Shown here: positions 29,886 through 62,024 of the stretch, in pieces
Layout: every line of letters begins with the position of its first letter
Numbering within the stretch: position 1 is the first letter of the stretch
IMG/VR virus record: IMGVR_UViG_3300025424_000009
Length of the DNA: 64,000 nt
Source of the DNA: a virus
Reading direction: 5' to 3' (one strand)
The notes under the pieces: model-generated
The model's database searches: none
Told to the model about the DNA's origin: nothing
Seen by the model: the letters and a program-made list of their open reading frames with translations, nothing else
Made by a program: the position numbers and the translations under genes

Positions 29886-30740
29886 TTTACAGGTCGAAGC
29901 CTTTTTCCACGAAAGACAAGAGTGTTATTCAATAGCCCAGTTGCTGTAGTCATCTACGTCTAAATACCAATCACTAGGTTCGAGTACCAGGTCTTCAAAC
30001 TCTTTTACAGCTAACTCCTCGGAGTCAGCTAGTAAGGTTAACTTCGCATACGTCTTGTGTATAAATGTGTAAGTTGACATGCTATTTGTTTTTGCTGTTT
30101 AAAAATTCTTCTAATGTATCGTGGTAATAAAATACTTCATTCCACCTAACACCTTCATACTCCTTCTGAAACTCATCTGTAAGTTCCTCAGCTAGTTCAT
30201 ACAGTCCCCCTCTACCATATTCATATTCTCGCTTGTAAGGCAAAGAGTCTTCATGATTTAGTTGCTCATTTATCCAGCTAACTACCTCGAAGTGTGTTTC
30301 AATCCAGTCGGTATCTTTTGTCATAACTTATTATTATTTAATTTTTACTGAACCATTTACCTTCCTCGTTCTGATATATGTAACCTGCAATCTCTAATGC
30401 TTCCACAGCTAATGAACCTGCCTCATCATAATTAAGAGGATCATCCTGCCAAGCTCTCTGAGCTAAGTCTTTGTCATTTAGTAGATAAAAGATGTATTTA
30501 TTCCATTCGGTGCGTACATCTTCATTTTCTACCCACACATCAACCCAGGCCTCTATATCTCCATCTTTGATTAGTACGGCATCTTTTTCATATTTTAAAA
30601 CTTTCATGTTTATTTATTTTATTTACTAAATTCGAAAACTATTTTTAAATCAGTGTAACATTTGTTTATATTTATTAATATAGGGGTAGTCCTAAGTACG
30701 TGCAGGTACTAGCTACATTAAAACCTTAAAGACATTAAAT

Positions 30741-30777
30741 GCAATCCAAGTAAGCTCTACACAGCCGAAAGGGTTGC
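30741..30777 (+). ncRNA. Hairpin with AAGTA/CGAA internal loop (sarcin-ricin/loop-E-like) in the TnpB leader
   Basis: GCAATCC-AAGTA-AGCT-CTACAC-AGC-CGAAA-GGGTTGC. Confidence 0.5.
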
Positions 30778-30790
30778 TTTATTATTTTAA

Positions 30791-31945
30791 ATGCTAAAAG
30801 CCTACAAATATAGAATGTATCCCAACAAGACTCAAGAGATTCTTTTAAATAAGACTTTTGGGTGTTGTAGGTATTTCTGGAATAATTGTGTAGCTACTTT
30901 CAATAGTTATGATAAAGAAACTAATCCTCAACCTACTTTCAAAACTGTTAAGCAGTTACGTGATGAGACAGGTTGGATGAAAGAAGTTTCTCATGATTCT
31001 GTAGCATCTAAAAGACTAGACTTTGAAGAATTTAAAAAACAATTCTTTAAACCTAATCCTAAAAACAAACTAGGTAGACCTAAATTCAAAAAGAAAGGTG
31101 AAGGTCAATCTTTCAGATTAGATAAGCAGTATGTAAAGATAAAAGGTAACCTTACTCATATTAGTAAGATAGGATGGGTTAAGTTTGTAGAACACAATCC
31201 TTTACCACCTAATTCACAAATAAGAAATGCTACCTATAGTAAAGACTCATTAGGTCATTATTACATATCCATTCTAGTAGAAACAGAAGTAAAACATTTT
31301 GAAAAAACTAATAAATCCGTTGGGATAGATGTAGGACTAAAAGAATTCGCTACACTATCTGATGGTACAGTTATACATAACCCAAAGTACTTTAGAGAGA
31401 ACCAATCTAAATTAAAGAGGGCTCAACAACATTTAAGTAGAAAGAAGAAAGGTAGTAAAAGATATAAGAAGCAAAAGTTAAAAGTAGCTAAAGTTAACAA
31501 GGAGATCCAAAGACAACGTGAGTTATTCTTACACACTACCTCACTTAACATTGTAAAGAACTATGATGTAATATCTATAGAAACTTTGAATGTAAGTGGT
31601 ATGGTGAAGAATAAGAAGCTATCTAAATCTATTAGTGATGTCTCCTGGTCTAGCTTCTTCTCCATGCTAAAATACAAAGCTGAATGGTACGGTAAAGAAG
31701 TAGTTCAAATCAATAGATGGGAACCTACTTCTAAGACCTGTAGTAGTTGTGGCTACTACAATAAAAACCTCACTCTCAGCATTAGAGAGTGGGATTGTCC
31801 TGAATGTAACACTCATCACAACCGTGATTTAAATGCATCACTAAATATTCAAGCACTAGGAGTTTCTAGTGCTCAACGTACACTGAGAGAATGTAAGACT
31901 CCACTTGTGGAGCAAGCCTCGTTGAAGTGTATAAAGCATCAGTAG
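30791..31945 (+). CDS. tnpB: RNA-guided endonuclease TnpB
   Basis: LKAYKYRMYP N-terminus; RuvC GIDVG, IETL, RDLNA; CSSC/CPEC Zn finger. Confidence 0.92.
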   Translation: MLKAYKYRMYPNKTQEILLNKTFGCCRYFWNNCVATFNSYDKETNPQPTFKTVKQLRDETGWMKEVSHDSVASKRLDFEEFKKQFFKPNPKNKLGRPKFKKKGEGQSFRLDKQYVKIKGNLTHISKIGWVKFVEHNPLPPNSQIRNATYSKDSLGHYYISILVETEVKHFEKTNKSVGIDVGLKEFATLSDGTVIHNPKYFRENQSKLKRAQQHLSRKKKGSKRYKKQKLKVAKVNKEIQRQRELFLHTTSLNIVKNYDVISIETLNVSGMVKNKKLSKSISDVSWSSFFSMLKYKAEWYGKEVVQINRWEPTSKTCSSCGYYNKNLTLSIREWDCPECNTHHNRDLNASLNIQALGVSSAQRTLRECKTPLVEQASLKCIKHQ

Positions 31946-32188
31946 AGTAATCTACTACAGCTTATAATTACGTTACGGGAATTTTCCAAATTCTTTTAGA
32001 CATAACTTAATTATTTAAAACGTTATAAATGCAATTCTCCACAACCAAATTCCATGTGGCTGTAGGATCATTCTCCTGCTCATCTGGATACATATCTATC
32101 ACCTCTCTTATATTATCATAACTAAGGAATAGATTGAGGTTATCGGCTACTTTTAAAACATCTTCTACTGAAATCATAACTTATATTT

Positions 32189-32728
32189 TTATTTAAAACA
32201 ATTAGCATTATCTTCGTATAACTTTTTAATGTCTCTTTTAAAGAAATAATCATTCTTACAATATTCTTCTATAGAATTGGACCGAGAAGGGTATATAGTG
32301 TCGTCACTATATTTAGGAGTAAAGTTTAGTATCTCACTGCTATAGACACCAAGACCCCCTTCGGTCCTGTCGTAACAAGGTTTAACTTTTATAGTATGAG
32401 GTCTATTTGTAACACCGAACCTATGTGTTATGTGCAGTTCATACCAAAACTTATCAGCGATTGTTTCCCTAGTCCACTCTACCTCCAGATTCAAATCCCA
32501 AAGGTCTGTGGCAAGTCTGTCTCTCATATCTTGTACCTTATGCTGTAAAACAGCATTTATTTGTTTATTACGCATATCAGCATAAGTAATACGTTCTTGT
32601 TTTTTCTGATACTCATTTATGATAGCACTTGTATCTACAAGACTACTTTGATTACTTACAGGCTTGTTAAGCGTTTCAAACTGATCTTTGATTGAGTCAA
32701 TTATTGACTGTTGTTCTTCTGTTAACAT
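32189..32728 (-). CDS. Hypothetical protein
   Basis: 179 aa with AAGTT-ATG leader. Confidence 0.7.
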   Translation of the reverse strand: MLTEEQQSIIDSIKDQFETLNKPVSNQSSLVDTSAIINEYQKKQERITYADMRNKQINAVLQHKVQDMRDRLATDLWDLNLEVEWTRETIADKFWYELHITHRFGVTNRPHTIKVKPCYDRTEGGLGVYSSEILNFTPKYSDDTIYPSRSNSIEEYCKNDYFFKRDIKKLYEDNANCFK

Positions 32729-33011
32729 AACTTATTAATTTAAATGTAAATTTGAAATATCCAATGTACTATTAGTACAGCTATCAGTATGAATAAAATT
32801 ATATACCACATTGTGTAAAATGATTCTGAACTGGAATCTAGTTTATTCTTCTTCCTCATCTGAGTAACTTTTTACATCTTCTTGGAATTGTATAAGACTA
32901 TAATCTTCATTTATTATCTCAAGGAGGAGACTCACTAAATAGGTAGAGTTCATATTATCACTGCCTATCCACTGCTCTAAGGTACTTCTTTTAATATACA
33001 TAATATTTAAT

Positions 33012-33365
33012 TTAAAATGTTTTAATTATATTTCCAGGTAAGTCGGGTATGATACCCTCCATATCTTCAAGTGTGAATCCTGCTATACCTGTCCCAATAG
33101 GGGTGAGGTAGAAGGTAAGATGTGGATTATTCTTTGCGTACATCACCAAGAAGTGTAGCTCATTATTAATGTAAAACAAGGGTAATTTCTTCATCATTCT
33201 ATCTAAAGTAGGTAGAGCATAGCTCTGACCAAAGTGACCTACACCCTCTCCCCACACTGCTCCAAACTTATTAAAAGCTAATTTGGCAGCACCACCGTAG
33301 TGGTGTCCGTTTAAATTACTACCAAACACAAATATTTCATTTTCCTTCAATTCTGTTATCAACAT
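33012..33365 (-). CDS. A1S_2505-family / macro-like phage protein
   Basis: IFVFGSNL.G.H.GGAA.LA...FGA..G.G.G..GQSYALPT and FYLTPIGTGIAG motifs. Confidence 0.75.
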   Translation of the reverse strand: MLITELKENEIFVFGSNLNGHHYGGAAKLAFNKFGAVWGEGVGHFGQSYALPTLDRMMKKLPLFYINNELHFLVMYAKNNPHLTFYLTPIGTGIAGFTLEDMEGIIPDLPGNIIKTF

Positions 33366-33366
33366 G

Positions 33367-34467
33367 TTAGGTATGTTTTATTCCAGTAATGTCTTCAAAT
33401 ATTTCGGCATCGAAGTTAGGTAGAGTTAAGAATACATTCTTATTTTCTTCTGAAAGATTATTCCACATATTACTCCAAGCTTCTTTTAATGAAATTATTT
33501 TCAAAAATCCTTCTGTAGTTTCATATTTAGGATGAGCAACTTTCTCTTCATTTGTCATAATACTCATTGGCACCCAAATAGTAGTATCTAAGAATTTACT
33601 CATAATACTAACAGCAGGATGTCGTTCCCATTCAACCACTGAGATACTAGTAGGTTTATTAAAGAGGTATAGGATAGGTGATTTATCGTTAGAAAAGGCA
33701 CCTGAATTCCTATAACCTGAATTACTATCACCTGAATTCCTATCACCTGAATTCCAATCACCTGAATTCCTATTACCTGAATTCCTATAACCTGAATTAC
33801 TATCACCTGAATTCCTATCACCTGAATTCCAATCACCTGAATTCCTATTACCTGAATTACTATCACCTGAATTCCAATCACCTGAATTCCTATCACCTGA
33901 ATTCCAATCACCTGAATTCCTATTACCTGAATTACTATCACCTGAATTCCAATCACCTGAATTACTATCACCTGAATTCCAATCACCTGAATTCCTATTA
34001 CCTGAATTACTATTACCTGAATTACTATCACCTGAATTCCAATCACCTGAATTACTATCACCTGAATTCCAATCACCTGAATTCCTATTACCTGAATTCC
34101 TATTACCTGAATTCCTATTACCTGAATTCGAATGTCCAGTATTATTCATACCTTCATTAGCTACAAGTAATACTTCTTGCCAATCTAAAATTCTTATTAT
34201 TCTCAGAATGTTTGTACAAGCTTTACTATCATCACCCTTGAACCGTACATCACCTAAAGCTTCAACCTCACACACTATATTCTCAGGAGTGAAGTAATAG
34301 TAATTAAAGCAATCAGAAGCTTTAAGACAGAAGTGAAAACCTGATGAACATATTTTTAATTCACCTTTATGTTCAAATGTTTCATTAACTTTGAACTGAT
34401 AACCATTACATGTAAAGTCAGGATTAAATACTTTGTAACCCTTTACTACTTTTGTTTCTTCTTTCAT
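33367..34467 (-). CDS. Pentapeptide (NSG[DNY][RSW]) repeat protein with conserved N-terminal GYK.F..DFTC domain
   Basis: About 29 five-residue repeats between a globular N-terminus and an FDAEIFEDITGI C-terminus. Confidence 0.85.
   Translation of the reverse strand: MKEETKVVKGYKVFNPDFTCNGYQFKVNETFEHKGELKICSSGFHFCLKASDCFNYYYFTPENIVCEVEALGDVRFKGDDSKACTNILRIIRILDWQEVLLVANEGMNNTGHSNSGNRNSGNRNSGNRNSGDWNSGDSNSGDWNSGDSNSGNSNSGNRNSGDWNSGDSNSGDWNSGDSNSGNRNSGDWNSGDRNSGDWNSGDSNSGNRNSGDWNSGDRNSGDSNSGYRNSGNRNSGDWNSGDRNSGDSNSGYRNSGAFSNDKSPILYLFNKPTSISVVEWERHPAVSIMSKFLDTTIWVPMSIMTNEEKVAHPKYETTEGFLKIISLKEAWSNMWNNLSEENKNVFLTLPNFDAEIFEDITGIKHT
33700..34130. repeat. 15-bp tandem repeat, invariant ACCTGAATT core plus 6 variable nt
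   Basis: Directly visible; encodes the pentapeptide repeat. Confidence 0.95.
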
Positions 34468-37418
34468 TTGTTTATTATATTTTAATTTCCAAAAAATGCA
34501 TTACTTTTTTCTTCATCTTCAAGGAAGGAAATAGGTACGGCCCATACCCCTCCCTCTGCAAACATTATCTGAAACTCAACTCCATACTTATCTTTGAGAG
34601 TTAAGTCCATCATATCATCTACAGCTTCATGGTGCCACTCGTGGTCTGGACCAGCTTCTATTGCTTGTATATCATATTCAGACAACTGAGCTTGTATTTG
34701 TTCCTTTACGTAATCCATTAGGTATCCATAAGCATACTGCCCCATATAGATACCGTGATGGTCATCTACGAGTAGTTCAGGTTCGGTGAATGAATGTTTC
34801 ATAACTTTACTATTTAATATTTGAGATAGGGTAAGCTGTCAGTATAGAATCTTTATCTATTTTAGCAATTAAACAAGGAACATCATACTCATCATATTGT
34901 GTTTCTTCATTTACTATTACCTTATTACTAGCAGCCTCTAAGGCATTTTCCACATGCATCTTAGCAAATTCAATTGCAAACTCTTTTGCCCATTTAGGTA
35001 GTACCCCATCTTGAGTATTCAATCTCTCAAATAATTCTTCTGCTGTTATCATCTTATTTAATTTTAAGTTTATCTAAAAATTCTATTACATCTTCAAAGG
35101 TTTTAGGTTCATTGTAAGTAGCAAACCCTCTCAAAGCAACTACTTTAGGTGTAGCTTCAAAGTAAGTAGTACATATATCTACACCACATACCTTGTCATC
35201 TCTATTAAGTTCTATAGTTAGAGTCCACATAGAAGCATCTGGCCATCCAAAGGTATTGATACCTCCATCTTGGTAAAGCTTAGAAAAGGACTTCAGACCT
35301 TTGTGGTAACCTAGTCTATTAGCTATTTCTGTTAATTGTTTGATCATGACTTATTATATTTATTGTTATGTAGATATCCACCTGTCATACTTAGACCATT
35401 ATCTAATGTGACTAAAGCTTTTGAATGTACGTTTTTCCAATCAATGGATTTAACTAACCTTTTACCTTTTCTACTTATACCTATTATTCTTATTTCAGTA
35501 ACAGTATTTTTAAAAGGGTACTCTGTCATATTAACTCCTATCTTGTTTTCACGCCACCAAACTAAGTCACCTACTTTTAATCTTCTCATAACTTTAAATT
35601 TTATTTTGTACCCACCCATACCGTTGTTCCAACTTAGCCTTGGCCACATTGTATCCAAGTGTACCTATAGTCTGCCAGAGTCTGTTAGCCAGTTCCCTAT
35701 CTATCACTTCAAAGGAGATGTAGCAGTATCCTCCCCAGTAATGGACGTTTAGATAGGCAACACCAGGTTCATATTTTATACCCTTGAATCTTACCTTGGC
35801 TGTGTATACTGTAAGACTTCCTATTGTAATTTCAGAGAAGCCATATGTTTGAGTTTGTTTGATATAATTCATCATCTGTACATTTATTTGTGATGTTCAC
35901 GAAACGTGAACGTTAATATTTTATGAACGTTAATCTATAAAAAATGTTCCACAGCTAGGGCACTTACTTCCACAAGGAAATTCATTTATATAAACCATAT
36001 TCCTATGGCGAGAGTAATTCATGTCACCAAATGTACAACTTTTTTCTTCTATGAACACCTTATCCAATCTTTCCTCTCTTTCCATATGAGCATTCATACT
36101 AGATACAGGTAATTCAGCTACAGGTTCACTGACTTCAAACTCATACACAGTAGTGCTACACCATCCATCACACATTCCAGCTATGTCATAAGACCAGGAA
36201 TATGAAACACACTTGTCTATAAATACATTCTCCTTGTTAAAAGGGAGATTGAAATCCATTTTGAAATCTGTAATATCTCCACTACCATTACTGGAATTAA
36301 TAACACCTATATGAACATTACCTCTAAATCTTATATGAGTAATATTCTTTTCGTCTAGGTCTAGAAAATCATCTATGTCACCCTCGAAGTAAATATGAAG
36401 TGAACCTCCATAAGATGCTTGATAAAGCATATTGTCAATCAGCTTGTCATAGTCACTATTTGTTATAGATAATAATTTCTTTATCTTGATACGTTCCAGT
36501 CTATAACCTGCTTCAGATGTACCCCATGCTGAATCTACATAATGACCTGTATCATAGAACATAACAGGATTTGATGTATTAAGTATAAGGTCTTTCATTA
36601 TAGTACTATCGTCTCTCTCCCAGAGCACATCCTGAATCCTATCTTCATACTCTTCCATGATATAGTCAGCATCTTCTATATCCCATTTAGACTCTATGTC
36701 AGACTTTAATTCTTTCTTGTACTCATCATTGGCATAGTAGTCATCTATAAACCATCCATCTACTATTTCATATAGTAAGTCAACACACCCTTTGTGTATA
36801 CATTTTTGAACAGTTTTTAAGTTGCTGTCTAGACTATCTCTATAATCTACATAGTGCAGAGTTACTCTTTTAGGTATCAACTCTTTTACTTCTTCCCAAC
36901 TAGGCATCTTTAACTCTAGGGTTACTGCCGGTATTTCTTTTGTGATAATTTCCATAACCTGTATGTTTATTTTATTAATGATTAAAATCTTTTCTTAACT
37001 GACATAATTAAATTTCTTATATCAACACTATGTTTATAAGCCCATACCCTATCTCTCCATAAAGGTCTCAACCTTTTGTAAGGTATTAAACTCATTTGTT
37101 TCCATTCAGATTCTCTAAGAGAAGGTAATAAATTCCATTCAATCAAGTCACAATAGTGTATCAATTTATCTTCTTTATGTGTAGCCCATACACCATTCAA
37201 ATGATAATAAATCTTCCTTTTGCCTTTACCAGATACAATCCAATATGTACCATTTCTAATAGCACATATAGGTATATCTTCAGGCCTTTCACAAGGAGTT
37301 AAAAAACTATACTCTATTGGCCATTTACCAGTAGGTTCTAGTTCACCCCAGTCTACCATACTTTGTAAGTGCCCTGCATCAGGTGTAAATTTTATATTTG
37401 ACATAACTAATGTATTAA

Positions 37419-37970
37419 TTAATACTGATCAAATTCTTTCTTAGCCTTCTCATATTCTGTGATAGGTGTATCTTGCATGTACAACCAATCCCATAACAAA
37501 TTAGCTACCCTACCCTTAGTACAAGTAACTTTAGCAAAGTCATACCAATCCATAAAGATGTATTCAATACGGTAAGGACTTCTTTCGTCAGGTACAAAGT
37601 AGAATCTCCATTCATCAGAAGGACCTCCCCAAGATATCAACCACTGTAAGTATCCTTTACTCCTGCCATCATCTGGAAGAACATAACTGATATCTAACCC
37701 ATACTCAAATAGAATACTCATAGCGGTATTAGAACACTTTTCTTTTGTATCAGGTACATCATATCCATGATAATCAAAGAAGCTTTCTTTCTGTTCTTGT
37801 GTAGCTTCGTTGTTCATTACTGCAAAAAGCCATGTAAGCTTCTCACATTCTTTTCTATACTCACCTTTAATACGTTCCTTGCAAGTTAGCTCTCGCTTAG
37901 GAGTAATTGATATGGAAGGTGTAAACACCTCTTGTACTTGTTCTTTCGTAACTGTTTTTACTTCTATCAT
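37419..37970 (-). CDS. Conserved hypothetical protein with SWGGPSDE motif
   Basis: YLQWLISWGGPSDEWRFY motif recognised from phage/plasmid proteins. Confidence 0.65.
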   Translation of the reverse strand: MIEVKTVTKEQVQEVFTPSISITPKRELTCKERIKGEYRKECEKLTWLFAVMNNEATQEQKESFFDYHGYDVPDTKEKCSNTAMSILFEYGLDISYVLPDDGRSKGYLQWLISWGGPSDEWRFYFVPDERSPYRIEYIFMDWYDFAKVTCTKGRVANLLWDWLYMQDTPITEYEKAKKEFDQY

Positions 37971-38754
37971 AACTTATAATCTTTTAAGTGTTAAACTTTT
38001 TGTTATTTTTAAAGACTGTAACCAATACCCATCTGCACTCTCTATCTGATAGTCACAGAATTTAATGAAATCTGCTTTCTGTTGTTTAGACATACTATCT
38101 ATTAACTCTTTCACTTGAGAGTTGTTACCATTCACATTAGACTCCACTACATATACAAAGTAGTCCTCAATAGTCTGAAAGTCTAAACCTTTTATTATTT
38201 TTTGTGACACCATGATTATAATTCTATTAGTTCAAATTTGTTAATGTTATCTTCCTTTAGGTACTTTTCAATAATATCTATAGTACTATCTGTGTTAAGT
38301 CCTGTAATGATTGTATATACTACTGGTGTGTTATTTTTTATTTCATATACAGTTATACTTTTTTCACCGTTAAGACATTCAAATATATCATCATCTTCTA
38401 TAAACTTCTCTACTACATAGTATAATTTAATAGTATCACTATACACATTACTGACATGTTGTAGTGCTTCATTGTAGACATCTTCATTATCTATATGAAA
38501 AACTAAACTACCATCTGAAGAACTTGAAAAACTAAAACAAAAGTCATCAGGACTAGAAGCTTCATTCCAATCTTTATCAAACCATAAGCAATTAATATTA
38601 TATAATGCCTCTTCATTAAATGGTGTAAAATCATATAGGTATACCCAACCTATTTTCTCAGCATCTTTTTTAAACTTTTTGTAAGTTTCAAAGCTACTAG
38701 ATTTAACTGCAAAACCAATTTCTTTTTCCATTTTAAAACTTTTTAACTGTTAAA

Positions 38755-38785
38755 CAAAAAAGCCTACCTGAATGGTAAGCTTGTA
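38755..38785 (-). terminator. Putative intrinsic terminator
   Basis: Minus strand GCTTACC-ATTCA-GGTAGGC followed by a T run. Confidence 0.6.
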
Positions 38786-41115
38786 TAAATCTATTAAATC
38801 AACTTTCTACTAAAGACAAGAGAGGCTATTACAAATTTGATTTTATTGTTTCGATAGCCTTATTTATATCTTCCAAGCTGACGTTATCCCAACAACCTAT
38901 TTTAAAAGTAGCTTGAGTTAATTTTACACTCCAGAGTTTTGTACCTACTTGTAGTAATGAAAAGTCTCTTATTTGTTCTAATTCCTCTAAAGATATTTCA
39001 CCATCTGCCACTAGTAATTTATCATCCATTATTATAGCTTCACGGCTTCGTGAATCTATTATCTTTATTTCTTTTTGTTTGTAGATAGGTTCAAACCAAA
39101 GGTCTAACACACCAGCTTTTTCTAATAATTCTAAAGTATGTGATTTTGGATAAAATTGTAGTATTAACTTTTCCATTTTAGTTACATCATCAACTCTAGC
39201 TATCTCACAAGCAGCTTTTGAATATTGAGTCTTAACTAATTTATAACCGATAATCTCTTTTGAAGCTTCTGTATTAAAAGGAAGTAAAGACTCTTCTTTA
39301 AACCCTAGTTGAACTATATGGTTATTTTTATCTAAATATCTAACAATATAAAATTCTTCATACTTACTCGAAATAGTACCCTTGTTTTCTTTAAAAATAA
39401 GATCTCCATGAAAAATTAAGCTCTTTGGTATTTTATGAGGTTCACTAAAAAACTTAACGTTAAATAAGTTTTTATCCTCAGTATTAAACTTTACCTCATC
39501 CCCTATTTTAAATTTGTTTGTCATTGTTATTTTATTTTAAATTATTAATTAATCTTCAGCATATGAAGTATCAAATCCATTTTCTTTTAGAAGCTCAATA
39601 GCCTCATCTGGAAGCCTAAACACACCATCATAGTTATTTACCTTCTTGTTATTATCTACCCAGATACCTATCCATACACATTCATTTAAATCTGGAACAT
39701 CCCATTCAATACCATACTCACCTGGTCTTTCTAAATCATATAAGTCCATTACACATTTATACTCACCTAGGTGCTCTAATGTAGGTGTAATACTTCTTTC
39801 AAGTACTATCTCAGTACTGAATACTTTTGACGCTATTAGTTTCATACTACTTTATTTTTTATTTCCCCTCAGCTTTGTTTAAGGCGGCATAAACCTGACG
39901 CTCTAGATCAATAGGAGAGTTATACTGCTCTTGTAGAGCTTGTAGACATGCCTTCAAAGCTTTATACATTTCTGGAGCAGCCATGATTAGATTAGAGGTA
40001 GTATAATCTTCACTACCTGATTCTTCTAGGTAGGTTAAGGCTACATCTACACCTGTCTTTTCATCATGTATTAAGTACTGGTTGTAAGGATTACCTATCT
40101 TACTCTTAGCCCAAGTGGTGGGTTTATCTTCTTTCACTTCAGTGGGAGTGTAGGGTTCTAGGTAACGATAATATATACACATATTACTATTATCACCCTC
40201 CCTATCGCATTTACAAGCATCTTCTCCGATAAGATTATCAACTATTTTAACTACATCTCCCTTACAATACCCTGAGTAATTAGGATTATTAACTAACACT
40301 TTTGCAAGTGATCCTACTTTAAGTTCTTTCATGATTTACATTATTTAAATGTTTGATAATAGTGTTTTAAGTTTATTCATGTCATACCCATCTTGTTTAT
40401 AACTATCAATTAGATAATCAATATACATCAATGCCTTTTCTTGATACCAATCAATGGTATCTAACCACTCTAAGAATTTATCTGTTTGAGGGTATCCTCT
40501 ACATTCAAATATAATTTCACTAGGTAAGTTATCTTTATCCAACAGCCCTTCAGGTATACCTATGATAGGAAATCCATCCTTCATATCATATACATTCCAA
40601 GGGTCTTTTACTATAACTCCTTGTGCAATACCATATACATGACCTTTATACTTAAAGGTAAAGTTATCAAATACTCCCATAATTACACTTGTTTTAAAAA
40701 TTTATAATGCTTTTTATCTGCAACCTTTTGACTTGATGCAACACAAGTAAAGCCATCATCAAATGTATATCGTTGGCATCCTTTAGGAATTACAGTAAAT
40801 ATTTCCCCTGATACATTATCAGCATTGACAGGACTTTTAAAAGAAGTCATTTTACAGTCAGCTTCAAACATTGCACCCATAGTTAAAAATGCTGCTAATT
40901 GATTCATTCTACTCATTTCAATTTATTTAATTTGGTCAACCACTGATGAAATAGGTTTACATTCTTTGTCACATAGATTTGCAAAGATTAGAAAGAGCTT
41001 TGTTTGGTAGATTTTATTACTACTCTTTACAAGAGATTGACTCCAAGCTCTGTAGGCACTAATTAACTCATTGGAGAGTTGTGTTGAATAAGTCATTTTT
41101 ATTTATTTTAAATTG

Positions 41116-41394
41116 TTAAAAAGAAGCTGCTAAATTAATATATTTTTGTACTTCGTTGGTAGATAGGTAACCTTTTACATCACTACATGGTACAGTAAAA
41201 GTTTCAGAATCAAAATCATACCATTGACCTTTTTCATTCCAAATTGCAATTTCAGCATCTGGAGATGTTTATATTTCAGAATCATATCTTTTATTATTAT
41301 TCTTACAATAACAACCACCACCGAACATCACTGAAATAGTAATACCATTTTCAAATGTTAATTGAAACCCTCTGTTGTTTACTACTCTAAACAT
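41116..41394 (-). pseudogene. Conserved phage gene interrupted by an in-frame TAA at 41269-41271
   Basis: MFRVVNNRGFQLTFENGITISVMFGGGCYC...SEI*TSPDAEIAIW...DVKGYLSTNEV reads in one frame across the stop. Confidence 0.75.
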
Positions 41395-41628
41395 AATTTT
41401 TATTTTTTTTAATTAATAAATAAGTGATATTTTATGTATATCTCTTAGCCACTTCTGTAAGATGTGTTGGGTAGATGCAAGTACATAGTTATTGCTGTCA
41501 TTATTTTCATAAGGTAAACCTGAACCTTCTTCTAATGTGTCATAGCCATACTGACAAGGTATATTAAAACCTTTTTCTTTAGCTAGTTTAGCTGTTTCAA
41601 AATCAACAATTTTTAATTCCATAACTAA

Positions 41629-41796
41629 TTAATTTTTATTTTTAATTAAAAATTCTTTTATCTCTTCAATCACATAAAATGCAAGATTAAGAATAGCTAA
41701 GAGTAACCAACCTAGTGCCCATTTATCATTATGGATGTAGTAATACCAAGAAAGAGAACCATACCCAATAAACGATAATAAATAAAGTATATTCAT
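41629..41796 (-). CDS. Small two-helix membrane protein (not in the ORF track)
   Basis: MNILYLLSFIGYGSLSWYYY...WALGWLLLAILNLAFYVI, 55 aa. Confidence 0.5.
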   Translation of the reverse strand: MNILYLLSFIGYGSLSWYYYIHNDKWALGWLLLAILNLAFYVIEEIKEFLIKNKN

Positions 41797-42709
41797 AAAA
41801 TTTAATTTTAAAATTAATTGGTAAAAATTACCATTTAAAATAACAACATACTAAATAACAAACTCAGTCAATAATATCAACTGAGTTATAAAACTCAACG
41901 AAACACAAGAGTGTTAAAAGTCAAGTGTGACAAGAACTAAATAATAACCTCACTTAAAGCCTCAAGCCTATCTACAATAGCTTTACTCTTAAAAGTAGGT
42001 TCAAGATAAAACTCATCTTCAACCTTTATAGCTCTGATGTACCCTTTATGTTGTAGGTCAATAATGGTATTCTCATTAAGTATTATACCTAGCTTCCTAA
42101 AAGGTAATATATCACCTACAGTACTAATAGTAAAAATGATGCGTAGTTCAAGTGTATTCATAACTAATCAATTTAAACATGTTAAACAAACTTCATCTAT
42201 ACTCATGTGCGACTCTTGAGAGATAGTATCAAATAAGATAAGTAAAGGGTCTTTGATAATAAAAACACAACCTAAAATTTCCATTTTATTTTTTTTTATT
42301 TTTTAAACTAATTCACTGGTAAAAATTACCAATACAAATAATAACAATATACTATCCCAGTAGATAAAAAAAATATCTATATTAAGTTTTATTAAATGTC
42401 AATATAAAAATCTTTATAAAAATACCTAAACCCATCACTATGCCAACCATTACCTTCTCATATTTTTACTCTCTCATACCTAAGCTTTAAACCTAATTCT
42501 TCTGTAACATCAAATAAACTCGGTAAGTTCTGTCATATTAATTGAACGTTTGTTTAATTTTAAATAAGGTAGGGTGTATGATGACTGTATTAGAGATAAC
42601 AATCATCGTAATATTACGATTAATAAATAGATCTAGGGCGTATAACAATATTCAAACAACTGTTTTAAACACTTGTTTAAATAATAGGGGCTGGAAAAGG
42701 GAGTATCTT

Positions 42710-42965
42710 TTAATCACCCTCCTCTGTATTAAGGCTATCTATAAATTTCGAAACATTACTATTCAATTCTATAAAGTCTTTCTTCGTTTTTGAATACCAT
42801 CTTTGATAATACATAAGCCCCTCAACAAGTGCATCCCTTTCGGTTTTAGCTCTCATTGAAATATTCATACGTTCATTATAATCATACAACCAATAAAGAC
42901 CACTGAATGTATCCTTGGTTAACTGAAAGGCATCACTCTTAAAAAATTAGTTCATGCTTTACCAT
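42710..42965 (-). pseudogene. Frameshifted conserved phage gene (extra base in the T6 run at 42941-42946)
   Basis: MVKHELIF then shift to KSDAFQLTKDTFSGLYWLYDYNERMNISMRAKTERDALVEGLMYYQ. Confidence 0.65.
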
Positions 42966-43406
42966 AAGTTGAAATGTTTATTATTATAACCTAATATAAG
43001 AATTTAATTTAGAGAGCCCTTTAATTATCTTAGAAGGGTAGTTCGAACAAACGTTTTAAACAACTGTTTAATATTTAATATCTAAAAAGTTTTTTTATTT
43101 ATCAGGAAAATTACCTAAAAAGAGGGGAGGTAGAGGAGGGTATCTGCTTTTTAGACAAATTTCCCCCACTTTTACCCACATTTCCCCACTTTATATAGTA
43201 TTTTATTCTTTTTTACTCTAAAAACCAGGCAGTTTCACCACTTCCCCCTCCCATATTGTTATCGTTATCATCCTTAGTACCTTCTATCAGTATAAAAACA
43301 AATAGAATTGCTATTATTAGACTCATTTTATTTAAATTTAATTACAGACTTATTAAGCCCCTGTTAACAATAGATTAATACAAACACCTTACTCACCCTA
43401 TTACAG

Positions 43407-43420
43407 GTCAACCTTGAGCC
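43407..43420. repeat. TCAA-CC-TTGA inverted-repeat motif; other copies at 46286-46299 and 48969-48982
   Basis: CCTATTAC..TCAACCTTGAG.CTCTCAG shared by the 43.4 and 46.3 kb copies. Confidence 0.7.
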
Positions 43421-43877
43421 TCTCAGTAGCCTTTTTCCCTAATTGAACGTACATTTTGCATCCAATTATTGAAGTCTACATGAGATATTTCTCTTTCAGA
43501 GACCTTAATTCTCTTAAATTTTAACCTATTTCTCTTAGGTTTTACACCAAAAAGACGTAATAAAACAGTATTTTTAGCCCTGTTTAAGGCTATTTTAAAT
43601 CGTTTGTTCATTTTGTTATATTTATTAATAATGTACCTTGCATATTAAGGGAGGTAGTATAAACTGAGTGCTCTTTGAGGTCCCTTGTGGTTAAAAATCC
43701 TCGCACCGACCCCACTCTAAGAATTTACCCTTAAGCTGTAACAAATGGTTTTAATAACATACACTTACTTTTAACTCTCATTGGGGGATAAAGGGGGAGT
43801 CTATTTTAATTAGAAGGTCATCTTACTAAAGAGTGCATTCCTTGGTAAGGTGTTAATCATATCAACATATTATAACT

Positions 43878-43916
43878 TGTAGTCTAAGTAGGTAATGCAC
43901 TGCCGAACAGACTACA
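43878..43916 (+). ncRNA. Hairpin with AAGTA/CGAAC internal loop (sarcin-ricin/loop-E-like) in the leader of 43933
   Basis: TGTAGTCT-A-AGTA-GGTA-ATGCAC-TGCC-GAA-C-AGACTACA, perfect 8-bp outer stem. Confidence 0.55.
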
Positions 43917-43932
43917 TTTTATTTTATATCCT

Positions 43933-45204
43933 ATGTCACCATTAGACACCACTGTAGTAAACTACTACAAGAAATTCAGTAAACCGACTGTATTAGGTAC
44001 AGTAACCTTAAGAGAATGGCTGAATGCTATTAACAAATGCCCTTACACCAACAAGATACTAGACGCTAGGTCAGGTAAGAAAGACTATGAATTAACTAAA
44101 GCTTCTCTGCCTGTAGTAACTTATAACTTCTTATACAGAGAATATAAGAAAGATAAAAACATAGAGTCACCTACAGGGCTACTATACTTTGATATTGATA
44201 CACCTGAATTTAATATAGAGTCACTGGATAAGAGTAAGATATTTGTATTACACCATTCCTTTGGAGGTAGAGGTTATGTACTTCTTGTCAGGGTCGAGGG
44301 ATTAACAGTTAGTAACTTTAAATCAGTATATAAAAATATTGCTATTGATTTAGGTATTGACCACCTGTTTGATACTAATGCTGCAAAACATTCTCAATAC
44401 AATACTCTTAGTCATGATACTAAGATTTTTATTAATGAAGATTGTATAATTTACGAGGTTGAAAAAGACCCCACGTCTGTCATATTATCTACTCAAAACA
44501 GCCTTGAAAAAGACCCCACGTCTGTCATATTATCCAGCGATAAAGAAAAAACCCCACGTCGGTTGATACATGAAGAAGATACAAGATATATCACAGAGAT
44601 GGGGTCAAAAATACCTTATGCACAATTAAGGTTCACTAACCTAACAGATTATGAATTTACTTGTGACTACATAGTTAACTGGTCTGGCTTTACTTTTATT
44701 CATTGTTACATACCTTTTAAAAACAAATGCTCCAATAAGTATAAAACTTTATTAAGCTATTGTACTAACCTTGTTTGGTTAAACCCTTCCATATCCTATA
44801 GCAGGACTTATAAAATAATGTCAAGAGTAAATGACATTTATTATGACATACCCTCAAAAGAAGTAAATGTAAAAAGAGTAGTTGATACAGTATTTAAGCA
44901 AACACAAGAGGGTACTTTGAAACCTATACAAGACAAACCTAGATATATAATATTTGACCACACTAATAAAAGTAAATTATCCACCAGTGATAAACTAGAG
45001 ATATGTAGAGATGAATTAATAAAGAAAAATATACTAGAGAGTAAACAAAAACTAGCAAAGCTAATAGATGAGTGGAACCTAGACCTTGAAGGGAAAATAA
45101 CCATAAAAGGATTAGCAGCTAAGAAAGTACTAAGCAAAAATACAATTGATAAATACTACTCTGTTTTTAGAGAGGCAGTTAAGATTAAGAATTCAAAGCT
45201 ATAA
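43933..45204 (+). CDS. VirE_N/BT4734-like (primase-related) protein with C-terminal HTH; Rep-like architecture
   Basis: K.SLPVVTYNF, PTGLLYFDID and SFGGRGY motifs; ITIKGLAAKKVLSKNTIDKYY HTH-like tail. Confidence 0.7.
   Translation: MSPLDTTVVNYYKKFSKPTVLGTVTLREWLNAINKCPYTNKILDARSGKKDYELTKASLPVVTYNFLYREYKKDKNIESPTGLLYFDIDTPEFNIESLDKSKIFVLHHSFGGRGYVLLVRVEGLTVSNFKSVYKNIAIDLGIDHLFDTNAAKHSQYNTLSHDTKIFINEDCIIYEVEKDPTSVILSTQNSLEKDPTSVILSSDKEKTPRRLIHEEDTRYITEMGSKIPYAQLRFTNLTDYEFTCDYIVNWSGFTFIHCYIPFKNKCSNKYKTLLSYCTNLVWLNPSISYSRTYKIMSRVNDIYYDIPSKEVNVKRVVDTVFKQTQEGTLKPIQDKPRYIIFDHTNKSKLSTSDKLEICRDELIKKNILESKQKLAKLIDEWNLDLEGKITIKGLAAKKVLSKNTIDKYYSVFREAVKIKNSKL
44459..44560. repeat. Iteron-like direct repeats inside the VirE_N-like gene
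   Basis: TTGAAAAAGACCCCACGTCTGTCATATTATC at 44459 and 44504; partial third copy GAAAAAACCCCACGTC at 44545. Confidence 0.85.
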
Positions 45205-45257
45205 CCCTACCTACCCTACAACTCATCCATTATCTTCTTCAGCACATTTATTCTTAC

Positions 45258-46213
45258 TTATAGTAATTCTATTACTTCAGTCTTACTGTTAGCTAAAGTA
45301 GGTATTTGAGCTATGAATTGCTCATCACGGTGACCTTCCTTTTGAATAGTATAAGGTTTTAATACTTTAAAATACTCTCTCTCTACTTGTAAATAATCTA
45401 TATTAAAGCGTTCTTTCAAGCATTTACAGATACCAAAATCCATATTTGCCTCGCTTAGATGTTCCTGTATTTTCCTTAAATCATATAGACCCTTTACCAC
45501 CTCAGTATGTTCAACGTAATAAGCTAGTACTCTTTCAAATATCTCTTTCATAGTTAATTATTTTTACGTTGAACATAAGGGATACATCCCCCTTGCTTCC
45601 TTGAATAAGCTAGTCGAGCATTGGAAATAGGATCTACACAAGAAGTGTGGATACTAAACTTTTTACGACCACTTCGAGTAAGGTTAATAGGTTTGGGTGC
45701 GTCACCTTCTAAAGCTCTGTAAATGCAAGGCTTAAACGTTTCAGTTACGATTTCCTCTTTTACCTTCTGTAGTGGAATATGTCTAGGTACTAATTCTATA
45801 TTCAGTCTCTTTGCAGCCCTTTGCATATACTTAGGTAAATCACTAGGATAGATAGTTTCTACCCTATCTACTTTCTTCTTAGTGGGATCATATTGTATAT
45901 CCCCTTTACTACTTTTAGTACTACTCATTGACTTGTTTTGTAAGGCGTAGTCTAGCCTTGTCATTTGTTGATTCATAAAACTTTATTTAAAAGTTATTCA
46001 AAAATTGATTTAATAAGAAACCATATCATAGCAAAAGTAACACATAGGTTCTTGTACTACCTTAAATTCAGGGGTTATTCTATTCACCCATTCCATACTA
46101 TCTTCCCTGTTTACATTACCACAGGATGAACACTTACACTTAGGATGTCTATTATCTTTAAATCTTTCTATTATAGGTAATTCTATCTTACCTAGTATTA
46201 CAGGTGTTTCCAT
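45258..46213 (-). other. Three hypothetical ORFs (45258-45551, 45554-45976, 46010-46213 with Zn finger)
   Basis: Co-oriented ORFs; CKCSSC...CYFC in the last. Confidence 0.7.
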
Positions 46214-46426
46214 CTTATTTAATTTTAGCCTATTTAAAGCTGTTAAAAAATAAATTAATATTATCCCCTTATTACCTACCTATTACCTCAACCTTGAGGC
46301 TCTCAGGTATGATTTTAATACCTTTGTAGATAAAATATAAAAGGTTAGCTTTGCTATACTCCTCATTGAGAGGGTATAACTTTTTTGTAGGCTTAAGCAT
46401 AAAGCCTTTTTTGCTGACCTTTATTT

Positions 46427-46543
46427 TCATCGTAGGTAAGCTTTACGAGCATCACCCCAACTAAACTTAGGGCAAGTACTTCTACTTGAAGCACAACTAC
46501 ATAACAGCCCTACTAGGGCAATTAATACAATGATTTTTTTCAT
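46427..46543 (-). CDS. Small lipoprotein (38 aa)
   Basis: MKKIIVLIALVGLLCSC signal peptide II with lipobox; start moved from 46612 to 46543. Confidence 0.65.
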   Translation of the reverse strand: MKKIIVLIALVGLLCSCASSRSTCPKFSWGDARKAYLR

Positions 46544-46695
46544 AAACTTTATAATTATTTTGGGGATATACCCCATTAACAAAAAACACCTAGAAATTGT
46601 ATCTAAGTGCACACACGCCGAAAGACAAGCGTGTTAAAAACAAAGAGGCCAGGATAGACATCCAGCCTCGTCTATGTCCAAAACAAAAAAACTAA

Positions 46696-46768
46696 GGGGA
46701 GTAGGGGGATTTGAACCCCCTATAAGCCTATACATTGCATTGCTGCTTTTGTAACACTATTTACTCCC
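46696..46768 (-). ncRNA. tRNA-shaped element with intact acceptor and T arms and degenerate D/anticodon arms
   Basis: GGGAGTA/TACTCCC 7-bp stem, GGGGG-TTCAAAT-CCCCC T arm, 73 nt total. Confidence 0.55.
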
Positions 46769-53036: not shown

Positions 53037-54200
53037 TTGACATACTCTAACTTACTAAGAAGTAGATTCTTACTTTCAAACCTAAACTGCTTCCGAAGAA
53101 GTCTTATGTTTAGTACAGTATAACCGAATGCCCTCGGTTAATATATTGTTAGATGCTAATACATCTCTTCTATTAGTTGTATTACAGCTACTACAAGTCC
53201 ACTCCCTATCTTTAAGGGTAAGTTCTTTGTTTACTGTACCACAGGTACATAATTTAGAAGATGGGTAGAATCTACCTATCTTTTGAATTGTGGTACCGTA
53301 TTTAATAGCTACCTGTTCTAGTTTTTCTACTAGAGATGAGAATGAAAGATCACTTACCTTTCTACCCCATATCTTTTTCATAGCAGCTATGTTCAAGTCT
53401 TCTATACAAATTAGCTTATTTGCTTTACAAAGCTCATGTGCTAATTTCCATTCAAAATCAGAACGTTGGTTGCTAATGTTGATGTGGAGTCTTTGTAACT
53501 CTCTAAGAGCTTTCTTCCTATTTTTACTACCTTTCTTCTTAGAAGATAAACTTCTATTAGCTTTCTTCATCTTCTTGATGTTCTGCTTATAAAACTCTGG
53601 AGATTTAATTTCCTCTCCGTTGGAGAGAGTAAGAAAAGTTTTCAATCCAAAATCAATACCAATGTTAGCATCACCTAATCTATTGTATGATTTTAGAGTT
53701 GAGTTGCAGGTGAAGATAAAAAAGATTTCACCTAGTTTGTTTCTCTTAACAGCTACTCTTTTAACATTTTCATATTCTCTACTTTTATAAAATTTAAAAT
53801 TACCTACTTTGTTGACAGTTAGAGTATTATCTTTCAGTTTATAACCACACTGTTTAAAAACAAAAGAGTTAAAGTTCTTTGGTTTCTTAAATTTAGGTGG
53901 ATGTAAGGCTAACTTTTTAAAGAATCTTTGGTATGAGGTATCGACTCTCTCAACTATCTCTTGTACGGATTGAGCTGTTAACTCTCTCCATCTAGGATTT
54001 TTGTTTCTAAGTTTAGCTATATGCTTTTTAAGTTTATAGACATTGATGTATTTACTATATAATCTATGGTACCTCTTTTGCAAAGCAATACAATGATTCC
54101 ATATAAACGCAGCAGTGTTAATCCTGCTGTGAAGATATTTTAATTTATCATTGTTATATACTTTAAATGAGATGTTATACATTACTATTATAAATATTAA
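53037..54200 (-). mobile_element. IS200/IS605-family TnpB-only element 2 (left end approximate)
   Basis: Right end ...GAGTATGTCAA| at 53037 on the minus strand. Confidence 0.65.
53082..54182 (-). CDS. tnpB: RNA-guided endonuclease TnpB
   Basis: RuvC GIDFG, IEDL, RDVLA; CTC/CSSC Zn finger; YPSSKLC. Confidence 0.92.
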   Translation of the reverse strand: MYNISFKVYNNDKLKYLHSRINTAAFIWNHCIALQKRYHRLYSKYINVYKLKKHIAKLRNKNPRWRELTAQSVQEIVERVDTSYQRFFKKLALHPPKFKKPKNFNSFVFKQCGYKLKDNTLTVNKVGNFKFYKSREYENVKRVAVKRNKLGEIFFIFTCNSTLKSYNRLGDANIGIDFGLKTFLTLSNGEEIKSPEFYKQNIKKMKKANRSLSSKKKGSKNRKKALRELQRLHINISNQRSDFEWKLAHELCKANKLICIEDLNIAAMKKIWGRKVSDLSFSSLVEKLEQVAIKYGTTIQKIGRFYPSSKLCTCGTVNKELTLKDREWTCSSCNTTNRRDVLASNNILTEGIRLYCTKHKTSSEAV

Positions 54201-55876: not shown

Positions 55877-57502
55877 TTACTGTTTTAACTTACTTCTTAT
55901 TTCATCAAGAGTTACTTGATTGATAAACTCACCGTTAAGGTAAATGTCTTTTAACTCACTATTTTGTACATCTTCCCAAGTAGCTTTATCTTTCAGTACT
56001 AAAGAACCATTTTCATCCTTTTTAACGCTTAATAATCCAGTAGCACTTTTCTTTGTACCATCATCTGTAATAGGGTCCTTAAATATCTCACGACATATAA
56101 CATTTGGTACATTCATAGTGCCTATCTCACCAAAAGAGGTACCAACTTGTTCTGTGATTTCAATATAAGTAGCTTTCATTGCAAATCCGAATGTATCACG
56201 AGTATTATATTGGTATGTAAAAGATCCTACACCTAATACAATATTTGTAGAAGCAAAGCCCTTAGCTTCCAATCTTGCACATATTTGTTCAGCCCTTTCA
56301 ATAGTTATTGAATCACCGTATATAGCACCTATATGTGAATCTAATACTTTATACCCCTGTTCATTTATAGTACCACCAAACACATCCCATAGTAATTCGA
56401 TTACACCTTTATTGGCAGGTGTTACATCAATAGTTTCTTCACCATACACTTCATGGTTATTATTTAATTTTACCTTATAATATTTATTATCTGTGTAGTT
56501 TAAGACTATTCCATTTTCACCTACTTTATTTAGCACACCTTCAGTGAATCCTTGAACTCTCCATGCATCACCGCAAATAATATCAACTGGATCACTACTA
56601 TCAGGTCTTATTACCAGCTTACCATCTCTTGCTAAAATTTCTTCTTTTAATGTAACAACGTGCTTAGTACATACATCCCATAAATTCCAAGTATCTGAAA
56701 CTACAGATAATATCCCTGTTGGAAATTTATTTAAAAGTCTTCTAAAAGTACCTACCTCATCCTCCTTTCCACCGGCTGACATCACGCTATGTTCCGTAGC
56801 CATTACTGAACCTGCTACAAATCCATCTGCTCCGTAATACTTTCTAGCACCATGTATAACAGGAAGAGAATCGGAACCCAGAAATGATGTAACGTGACCT
56901 AATCCAGAGCTAATAGTAGCGTCTACTGAATCCATACCCCTCATTGAGAAGTCGTGTCCTTGCCAATCAATAAACCAAGCTCTTTCTTTATCTGTTTTTT
57001 CCATCCACTTGGTTAGTACTTTACGGTATTGATAAGCAATAGTAGCAGATGTCATTGGTTTCCATAACATGTTAGAAATAATTGTTTCTAAATAGTTAGT
57101 TATCCAACTAAACTCAGGATGAGTATTGTAGATAGTTAGTACAGGAATCTTTACTGGCACTAGTGTACCTTCTGATATACCTTTTATAGCAATAGGTAAA
57201 TAACCCAAATCGTGTAACTTTTCAAAATGAGAAACATCATAGTCTGTTCCAAGATATAAAGATAATTCTTTCTTCATTTCACCACATACTTCATCTTTTG
57301 GTTTTGAGAAAAATTCTTTATCAAAAGCTTCATGTATTTGTTTTATAGTCATTTGTTGCCCAAATGAAACTACTTCTGTACAACCTTTTGGTGCGTATTT
57401 TAAACTCCTTGGAGTAAAATTTGAATAAACTAATGTTGTACCGTCTGGGTACATTAAATGGTGACCTACCTTATAAGCATCAGTCATTAATAATGGGTTC
57501 AT
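55877..57502 (-). CDS. Nicotinamide phosphoribosyltransferase-like protein (NAMPT/NadV family; candidate Namat)
   Basis: TDAYKVGH, YSNFTPR, HDFSMRG, ATEHSVM, SVVSDTW, VIRPDSSDP, GAIYGDSIT and KKSATG motifs. Confidence 0.92.
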   Translation of the reverse strand: MNPLLMTDAYKVGHHLMYPDGTTLVYSNFTPRSLKYAPKGCTEVVSFGQQMTIKQIHEAFDKEFFSKPKDEVCGEMKKELSLYLGTDYDVSHFEKLHDLGYLPIAIKGISEGTLVPVKIPVLTIYNTHPEFSWITNYLETIISNMLWKPMTSATIAYQYRKVLTKWMEKTDKERAWFIDWQGHDFSMRGMDSVDATISSGLGHVTSFLGSDSLPVIHGARKYYGADGFVAGSVMATEHSVMSAGGKEDEVGTFRRLLNKFPTGILSVVSDTWNLWDVCTKHVVTLKEEILARDGKLVIRPDSSDPVDIICGDAWRVQGFTEGVLNKVGENGIVLNYTDNKYYKVKLNNNHEVYGEETIDVTPANKGVIELLWDVFGGTINEQGYKVLDSHIGAIYGDSITIERAEQICARLEAKGFASTNIVLGVGSFTYQYNTRDTFGFAMKATYIEITEQVGTSFGEIGTMNVPNVICREIFKDPITDDGTKKSATGLLSVKKDENGSLVLKDKATWEDVQNSELKDIYLNGEFINQVTLDEIRSKLKQ

Positions 57503-60799: not shown

Positions 60800-62024
60800 A
60801 TACATAAATAACATTTTCTATAAAAAGTTTGATATTTATTAATATAGTACTTATGTTAAAATCATTCAAATATAGAATATACCCTACAGAAGAACAGAAG
60901 ATATTGATAAGTAAACATATCGGTAGCTGTAGATTTGTATATAATTTGATGCTTGAAACTAAACAAAGTGAATATGCTGCTACACAAACTAGCTTGAGTT
61001 GTTTTGATTTAATTAAAAGACTCCCTGAATTAAAGAAAGAGAAAGAATGGTTAAAAGAAGTTAACTCACAGTCATTACAACAGTCCATTCTAAACATGGA
61101 TACTGCTTTCACTAATTTCTTTAAAGGAAAAGCTAATTTTCCTAAGTTCAAAAAGAAGACTTCTAATAACTCTTTTAACATACCTCAAGATGTTAGATTC
61201 AAAAATGATAAACTAATCATCCCCAAATTCAAAAAAGGGATTGACATAGTTTTACATAGAGAGTTAATAGGTACAATAAGACAAGCAACTATAAGTAAAA
61301 CTCCTACTAATAAATACTTTGTTTCCATCTTATGTGAAACAGGAGAAGCAATTCCAACTAAACCTTTGGTAACTAAAGAAAATAGTGTAGGTGTTGATCT
61401 AGGAATTAAATCATTTCTTGTAACCTCTGAAGGGGATATAATTGATAATCCTAAATTTCTTAAAAAGAAACTTTCTAAGTTAAAATACTTACAACGTAAA
61501 CATTCTAAAAAGAAAGGAAGGAGAACAAAATATAAGTTAGCTAAGTTACATGAGAAAGTAGCTAACCAACGTAAAGTCTTTTTACATAAGACTTCTACTA
61601 TGTTAATCAAGAATCACGATAACATTTGCATAGAAGATTTAGCAGTATCTAACATGGTTAAGAACCACAACTTGGCACAATCAATTAGCGATTGTGGATG
61701 GGGTATGTTCAGAATCATGTTAGAATACAAAGCAGAATGGTATGGTAAAAACATCCTAAAGATAGGGAGATTTGAACCTAGTAGTAAAACCTGTTCTTGC
61801 TGTGGGTATATCAATAAAGAACTTACTTTAGATGTAAGGGAATGGGATTGTACTTGTGGTGTACACCATGACCGAGATATAAATGCTGCTATCAATATTA
61901 AAAACTTTTCTTTAAGAAATAACCTGTCTACGGAACATAGACTTAAAAATCATGACGAACTGTCTTCAATAGAAGAAGTGTTGACTCATGAAGCCTCACT
62001 ACCGAAAGGTTAGAGGTAGTTCAC
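60800..62024 (+). mobile_element. IS200/IS605-family TnpB-only element 3 (left end approximate)
   Basis: Right end GAAGCCTCACTACCGAAAGGTTAGAGGTAGTTCAC| at 62024. Confidence 0.7.
60853..62013 (+). CDS. tnpB: RNA-guided endonuclease TnpB
   Basis: [11 protein letters not shown] start at 60853; RuvC GVDLG, IEDL, RDINA; CSCC/CTC Zn finger. Confidence 0.93.

Follow-up and report, generated by a model that had tools for sequence, protein, structure and literature searches.

In the rep mRNAs of IncI-alpha and IncB plasmids an activator pseudoknot forms when the loop of a hairpin in the leader pairs with a remote segment by the start region of the replication initiator; control depends on an antisense RNA and a leader peptide. 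For the guanidine-IV (mepA) riboswitch it was proposed that the first hairpin kisses the loop of the terminator hairpin, the contact deciding on read-through (PMC11611296). RT-14 RNAs have a neighbouring reverse-transcriptase gene (PMC5737381), and AGUA/GAA has been described as a derived sequence of the sarcin-ricin motif, a stable segment of non-Watson-Crick pairs (PMC1865062). Here we report on an RNA hairpin with AGUA facing GAA from a 64,000-nucleotide (nt) stretch of DNA of an uncultured freshwater phage (IMG/VR virus record IMGVR_UViG_3300025424_000009; the whole stretch is called the window), for which no close GenBank phage was found and whose protein is on a contig of 177 kb. This hairpin does not stand alone: it is SL3, the 3' hairpin of a leader RNA close to the promoter. 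This leader RNA is real, conserved and structured; it is absent from Rfam 15 and was not found in literature searches. Its AGUA/GAA copies form a subfamily within a wider family of two-hairpin kissing-loop leaders in Bacteroidota phages, and the sarcin-ricin-type module is a new detail which marks this subfamily.

Conservation of the hairpin and of its upstream partner

The first-pass annotation had placed AGUA/GAA hairpins at 30741-30777 (copy 1) and 43878-43916 (copy 2), and both were recovered with exactly the sequence and position claimed. Between the end of copy 1 and the ATG of TnpB1 (30791) there are 13 nt; this TnpB was confirmed by Pfam (domains OrfB_IS605 and Cas12f1-like TNB). Copy 2 is separated by 16 nt from the ATG (43933) of a BT4734/BF3469 (VirE_N-like) protein of 423 amino acids (aa), with named relatives in Mucilaginibacter, Flavobacterium and Imperialibacter. 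The two genes are islands on the plus strand within a block of small phage genes that runs on the minus strand. Copies 1 and 2 folded as proposed, with an outer stem of 7-8 base pairs (bp), AGUA facing GAA, an inner stem of 3-4 bp and a 6-nt loop (folding z-scores -2.25 and -2.78), and each scored 42.9 bits against a covariance model of the true copies. The parts of the two leaders are as follows.

30668-30683 (+): promoter-like AT-rich 16-mer, preceded by TTTG; adjoins the copy-1 leader on its upstream side
30686-30716 (+): copy-1 upstream hairpin; inner stem 30695-30699/30706-30710, loop GUGCAG at 30700-30705
30741-30777 (+): copy-1 SL3; 7-bp outer stem, AGUA 30749-30752, 3-bp inner stem, loop 30757-30762, GAA 30767-30769
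30778-30790 (+): U-rich spacer between SL3 and the start codon of TnpB1 (gene 30791-31945); the tails of other copies are also U-rich
43618-43633 (+): candidate promoter-like 16-mer of the copy-2 leader, one mismatch to the motif at 30668; weak evidence
43832-43839 (+): copy-2 pseudoknot partner, 8 nt; perfect complement of 43894-43901, 54 nt upstream of the latter
43840-43850 (+): copy-2 small hairpin SL2; 4-bp stem, 3-nt loop; aligns with the small middle hairpin of orthologous leaders
43878-43916 (+): copy-2 SL3; 8-bp outer stem, AGUA 43887-43890, 4-bp inner stem, loop segment 43894-43901, GAA 43905-43907
43917-43932 (+): U-rich spacer before the BT4734/VirE_N-like gene (43933-45204)

The hairpin was found again at orthologs of the BT4734-like gene with 78%, 62%, 62% (two lineages) and 41% protein identity, with AGUA/GAA kept and the stems changed. 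At the ortholog of 78% identity it sits at the same place; stems and loop are different, AGUA and GAA are identical. More distant BT4734-like genes carry other structured leaders in place of the AGUA/GAA hairpin. A pattern scan of viral contigs returned mostly noise and, among the matches listed, at least one new copy (L038). The latter precedes a DUF6291/primosomal-like gene, the first of a replication operon in a small, unrelated phage. Four more copies were located 5' of homologs of this gene, so that the hairpin precedes DUF6291/primosomal-like genes in five further phage contigs. Altogether, AGUA/GAA is retained in 11 distinct copies in which the two stems and the loop-loop pairing vary, and the genes behind them are BT4734/VirE_N-like, DUF6291 primosomal-like and, once, TnpB. 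AGUA lies opposite GAA inside a helix in 11/11 copies, in agreement with the earlier assignment to the bulged-G motif sequence.

In the 11 copies each position of the outer stem is occupied by 3-6 canonical pair types and each position of the inner stem by 2-5, and all positions are paired. Pairs of the G.U type account for 10 of 140 stem pairs; because these would be A.C on the opposite strand, it is one strand that functions. In an alignment of eight copies compensatory changes were present at 7/7 outer pairs, and the observed covariation was reached by none of 500 shuffles. This alignment was made by the covariance model and the inner helix is mis-registered in it (62.5% paired); the pairing in 11 copies was taken from a separate parse. 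The SL3-only covariance model was built from seven sequences and finds close copies, whereas L260, L305 and L325 reach only 9-12 bits. A match of 20 bits (L005:670-704) is inside a coding tandem repeat and was taken as chance. The covariation-like pattern noted in the first-pass annotation, i.e. stems that differ and still pair around a constant internal loop, extended to further homologs with compensatory changes.

Next to the conservation of SL3 stands its pairing with a second part of the leader. At the orthologs and the DUF6291 loci, the SL3 loop and the loop of a small hairpin further upstream are complementary over 6-8 nt. Such complementarity was present in 10/11 copies, and the sequence involved differs in most of them. 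The partner in copy 2 sits just 5' of the small upstream hairpin instead of in its loop, i.e. a pseudoknot. In copy 1 five of six positions of the upstream loop match the SL3 loop and one is an A.C mismatch, the weakest loop-loop pairing in the set. For a wider set we compared own with cross-locus pairings, a test that replaced a looser kissing detector which gave 44% positives on shuffles: the two regions had a complement of 7 nt or longer in 38 of 68 distinct leaders of DUF6291 genes, as opposed to 17% in cross-locus pairings. Because the SL3 loop pairs with an upstream segment, SL3 is one half of a larger fold. Chance origin of copies 1 and 2 was rejected. With an outer stem of at least 6 bp and an inner stem of at least 3 bp, 22 look-alike AGUA/GAA hairpins were counted in 3.03 Mb of unrelated DNA, both strands included, and none of the 22 had an upstream complement of at least 6 nt to its loop. 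The hexaloop ending in CAC, which had been listed as a kept feature, did not hold up: loops of the other copies vary in sequence and in length (6-9 nt). As the loop is constrained by pairing and covaries with its upstream partner, the CAC end is not a signal.

About 30 DUF6291 and BT4734 leaders share a common design. The order is promoter box, 5' hairpin, A-rich linker, long second hairpin, U-rich tail and AUG, and the second hairpin has an internal loop 3-4 bp below its tip. At that site AGUA/GAA is present in 11 leaders; others have purine loops of the GAA/GGA type or small plain loops. SL3 ends 10-25 nt before the AUG and has a U-rich tail behind it, which in several copies includes a run of 6-7 U. 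The DUF6291 loci of small phages carry a box TAnnTTTG a few nt before the first hairpin, which we take to be the Bacteroidota -7 consensus. The leader has a constant position: a promoter-like box precedes it, and the start codon of the cassette or operon follows; these promoters, like that at 30668-30683, are inferred from sequence.

The 16-mer of 30668-30683 recurs identically at 60832-60847, directly 5' of TnpB2, although the TnpB1 and TnpB2 proteins are only 42% identical. Similar sequences are located 5' of TnpB3 and of the leaders at L203, L204, L253 and L255. Besides TnpB1 the window carries two more TnpB genes (60853-62013, plus strand, and 53082-54182, minus strand). TnpB2 and TnpB3 have a promoter-like AT-rich box directly before the ATG, without the leader of about 107 nt seen at TnpB1. 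For copy 2 the leader would be about 300 nt long if the box at 43618-43633 is used, and 43634-43830 may extend it on the 5' side to an unusual length. The 3.2 kb or so from 40680 to 43930 contain only open reading frames (ORFs) under 85 aa.

A weaker third copy had been reported further downstream.

46597-46628 (+): reported third copy; not part of the element

This copy was discarded. Its outer stem has 3 bp, its inner stem 2 bp, AAGUG replaces AGUA, and the minimum-energy fold takes other pairings. The covariance model from the true copies did not match it at E<=10; there is no ORF start behind it and no loop partner upstream. At 46696-46768 on the minus strand is a tRNA-like element with a perfect T-arm, a 7-bp acceptor stem and an aberrant D/anticodon region; it scored 22 bits with the Rfam tRNA model, below the 29-bit threshold, and ARAGORN did not call it. 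The region around this element, 46550-46740, folds unusually well (z -3.7).

Function of the leader and competing explanations

How might such a leader act? We consider it fairly probable that the leader limits or gates expression of the downstream gene in cis, via termination, translation or both. It would be transcribed together with a self-promoted gene cassette, here TnpB1 and the BT4734/VirE_N-like replication gene, and the nascent RNA would fold directly after the promoter. Through the pairing of the SL3 apical loop with that of the upstream hairpin, or in copy 2 with the strand adjoining this hairpin on its 5' side, the leader would close into a compact fold of the kissing-loop or pseudoknot type. 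Most likely, SL3 and the U-rich tail would act as a promoter-proximal, terminator-like hairpin, the formation of which would be tuned, i.e. locked or delayed, by the loop-loop contact, following the logic put forward for guanidine-IV. Alternatively, or in addition, the fold may control ribosome access to the adjacent U-rich start region. AGUA/GAA would contribute a rigid non-Watson-Crick segment at a constant distance from the kissing helix, which either sets the geometry of the fold or docks a protein. Because sister leaders swap AGUA/GAA for other purine-rich loops, a structural or docking role is preferred over a ligand pocket. In this manner the leader probably throttles replication and mobile-nuclease genes; tight limitation of its cargo, i.e. 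a replication initiator, primosomal-like proteins and an RNA-guided nuclease, is plausible. That AGUA/GAA docks a phage or host protein, such as an antiterminator or a translational repressor, which times the replication and mobile-nuclease cassettes during infection, is a speculative extension that we regard as rather improbable.

Four points weigh against this proposal. First, the loop-loop pairing of copy 1 has a mismatch. Second, since sister leaders replace AGUA/GAA, the sarcin-ricin module is not essential to the family. Third, the tails of L204, L253 and L255 are A-interrupted or do not start right at the stem and, therefore, make poor intrinsic terminators. Fourth, the 100% pairing is true by construction for a part of the 11 copies because the scanner required pairing; five of the 11 were located via the context of orthologous or homologous genes instead of the pairing scanner. 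A simple terminator scanner does not handle internal loops, and in RNAfold predictions the A-rich linkers pair with the U-rich tails.

The poor tails bear directly on a purely translational or stability element without a role in termination, an alternative which we consider unlikely. The 5' fold would protect the mRNA end and hold the U/A-rich start region open (Bacteroidota are said to lack Shine-Dalgarno pairing), or operate as an activator pseudoknot of the rep type. SL3 is always located 10-25 nt before the AUG and the downstream genes are replication initiators, as in the IncI/IncB systems, which would fit. However, many members of the family have a G+C-rich stem base followed by 6-7 U, the classic terminator form, and neither an antisense RNA gene nor a promoter for one was identified.

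Might the leader be a divergent member of Rfam RT-14 (RF02921), i.e. the RNA of a retroelement such as a retron or a DGR-like (diversity-generating retroelement) system? Rfam at gathering thresholds returned one tRNA only for the whole window. At permissive thresholds the three reported sites gave only a sub-threshold RT-14 match and noise, and Rfam 15 had no relevant match to the related leaders. The RT-14 match runs end to end with 43801-43921 with the same order of hairpins and a 3' hairpin in which UAGUA faces GAA, and the copy-2 pseudoknot partner aligns with the conserved linker of the model. Yet the score of copy 2 was 25.1 bits versus a gathering threshold of 48.1, and the match was absent from copy 1 and from the orthologous leaders. 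Of the ORFs in the window, 19 were tested, namely those flanking the sites and the largest ones from 28 to 58 kb, and none of them is a reverse transcriptase. When viral contigs were scanned with the linker consensus of RT-14, 18 loci were returned, and Rfam at gathering thresholds matched none of the 12 loci submitted to it. Membership in RT-14 is thus quite improbable.

A hairpin of single-stranded DNA, whether as an IS200/IS605 left end that a Y1 transposase recognises or as a primase (ssi) signal of the replication gene, is more improbable still. Copy 1 precedes TnpB, copy 2 precedes a gene of a primase-associated type, and the G.U pairs are equally compatible with single-stranded DNA. However, the hairpin was absent upstream of 97 TnpB relatives (80 bacterial, 17 viral) and of TnpB2 and TnpB3 in the same phage, and it is present 5' of non-transposon genes. 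A right-end counterpart after TnpB1 was not found and no tnpA was seen next to TnpB1. The constant distance to the start codons of three unrelated gene families points to a role in mRNA. Least credible is the idea that the hairpin mimics the ribosomal sarcin-ricin loop as a decoy for toxins or translation factors, which has the common AGUA/GAA module in its favour and nothing else: the closing C-G pair and the GAGA tetraloop cap are absent, in their place is a stem of 3-4 bp with a variable 6-9-nt loop that pairs elsewhere, and the element is part of a 5' leader rather than a free RNA.

Thus, a cis-acting leader which gates its downstream gene is the explanation we prefer. The proposal of an undescribed cis-regulatory RNA in the first-pass annotation stood in so far as the RNA is conserved, covarying and strand-specific, occurs before unrelated genes and has no Rfam match near threshold; that it is a hairpin on its own did not stand. 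How Bacteroidota phages regulate their genes is almost unexplored. A leader which recurs before replication initiators and TnpB would serve as a general means to control genes that are selfish or sensitive to dosage, and promoter-leader units would travel with mobile cassettes. If the protein-docking idea is true, these leaders would constitute a protein-responsive class of kissing-loop attenuators specific to Bacteroidota phages. The design, a freely varying loop-loop pairing with a recognisable three-dimensional module 3-4 bp below, is testable by mutation and may provide a portable regulatory part for Bacteroidota.

Further leaders and genes

Two additional types of conserved leader were encountered 5' of BT4734-like genes. 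One is located about 120-40 nt 5' of distant BT4734-like genes (L229-L232, L242, L247, L251). It has an outer stem around a hairpin, and a 3' strand of the UUCUCUC type is complementary to a GAGAGA-type segment just downstream, similar to a pseudoknot. The other is found in elements of about 35 kb (L207-L211, L220, L227, L238) and has a stem with a G-run, followed by a segment GAUGUCAC that is complementary to a later segment of the GAUGACA type. A small phage contig with a kissing-loop leader also carries a DUF805b RNA motif (L267:223-255, plus strand; Rfam RF02914, 38 bits, above threshold).

On the minus strand of the window a 10-mer, AUAAGUUAUG, recurs over start codons (e.g. 30322-30331, 32175-32184 and 32726-32735) and looks like a common translation-start context. 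The phage further encodes a pentapeptide-repeat/DUF7666 protein (33367-34467) and a nicotinate/nicotinamide phosphoribosyltransferase-like protein (55877-57502), both on the minus strand.

Comparison with known systems

With the guanidine-IV riboswitch the phage leader shares a 5' leader in which one hairpin contacts the loop of another. It differs in that conserved ligand-pocket nucleotides are absent, the loops vary freely as long as they pair, the context is that of phage genes, and Rfam guanidine-IV did not match. For the phage leader neither an antisense RNA nor a leader peptide was found, unlike in IncI-alpha and IncB, and it also heads TnpB. RT-14 is similar in the order of its elements and in the 3' hairpin with UAGUA/GAA, whereas the match is sub-threshold and limited to copy 2. 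From the sarcin-ricin loop of 23S rRNA the hairpin is set apart because it has the module only, without the capping tetraloop. By its sequence the module is that of the sarcin-ricin or bulged-G (loop E) motif: in 11/11 copies AGUA faces GAA between two helices with a non-canonical flanking apposition.

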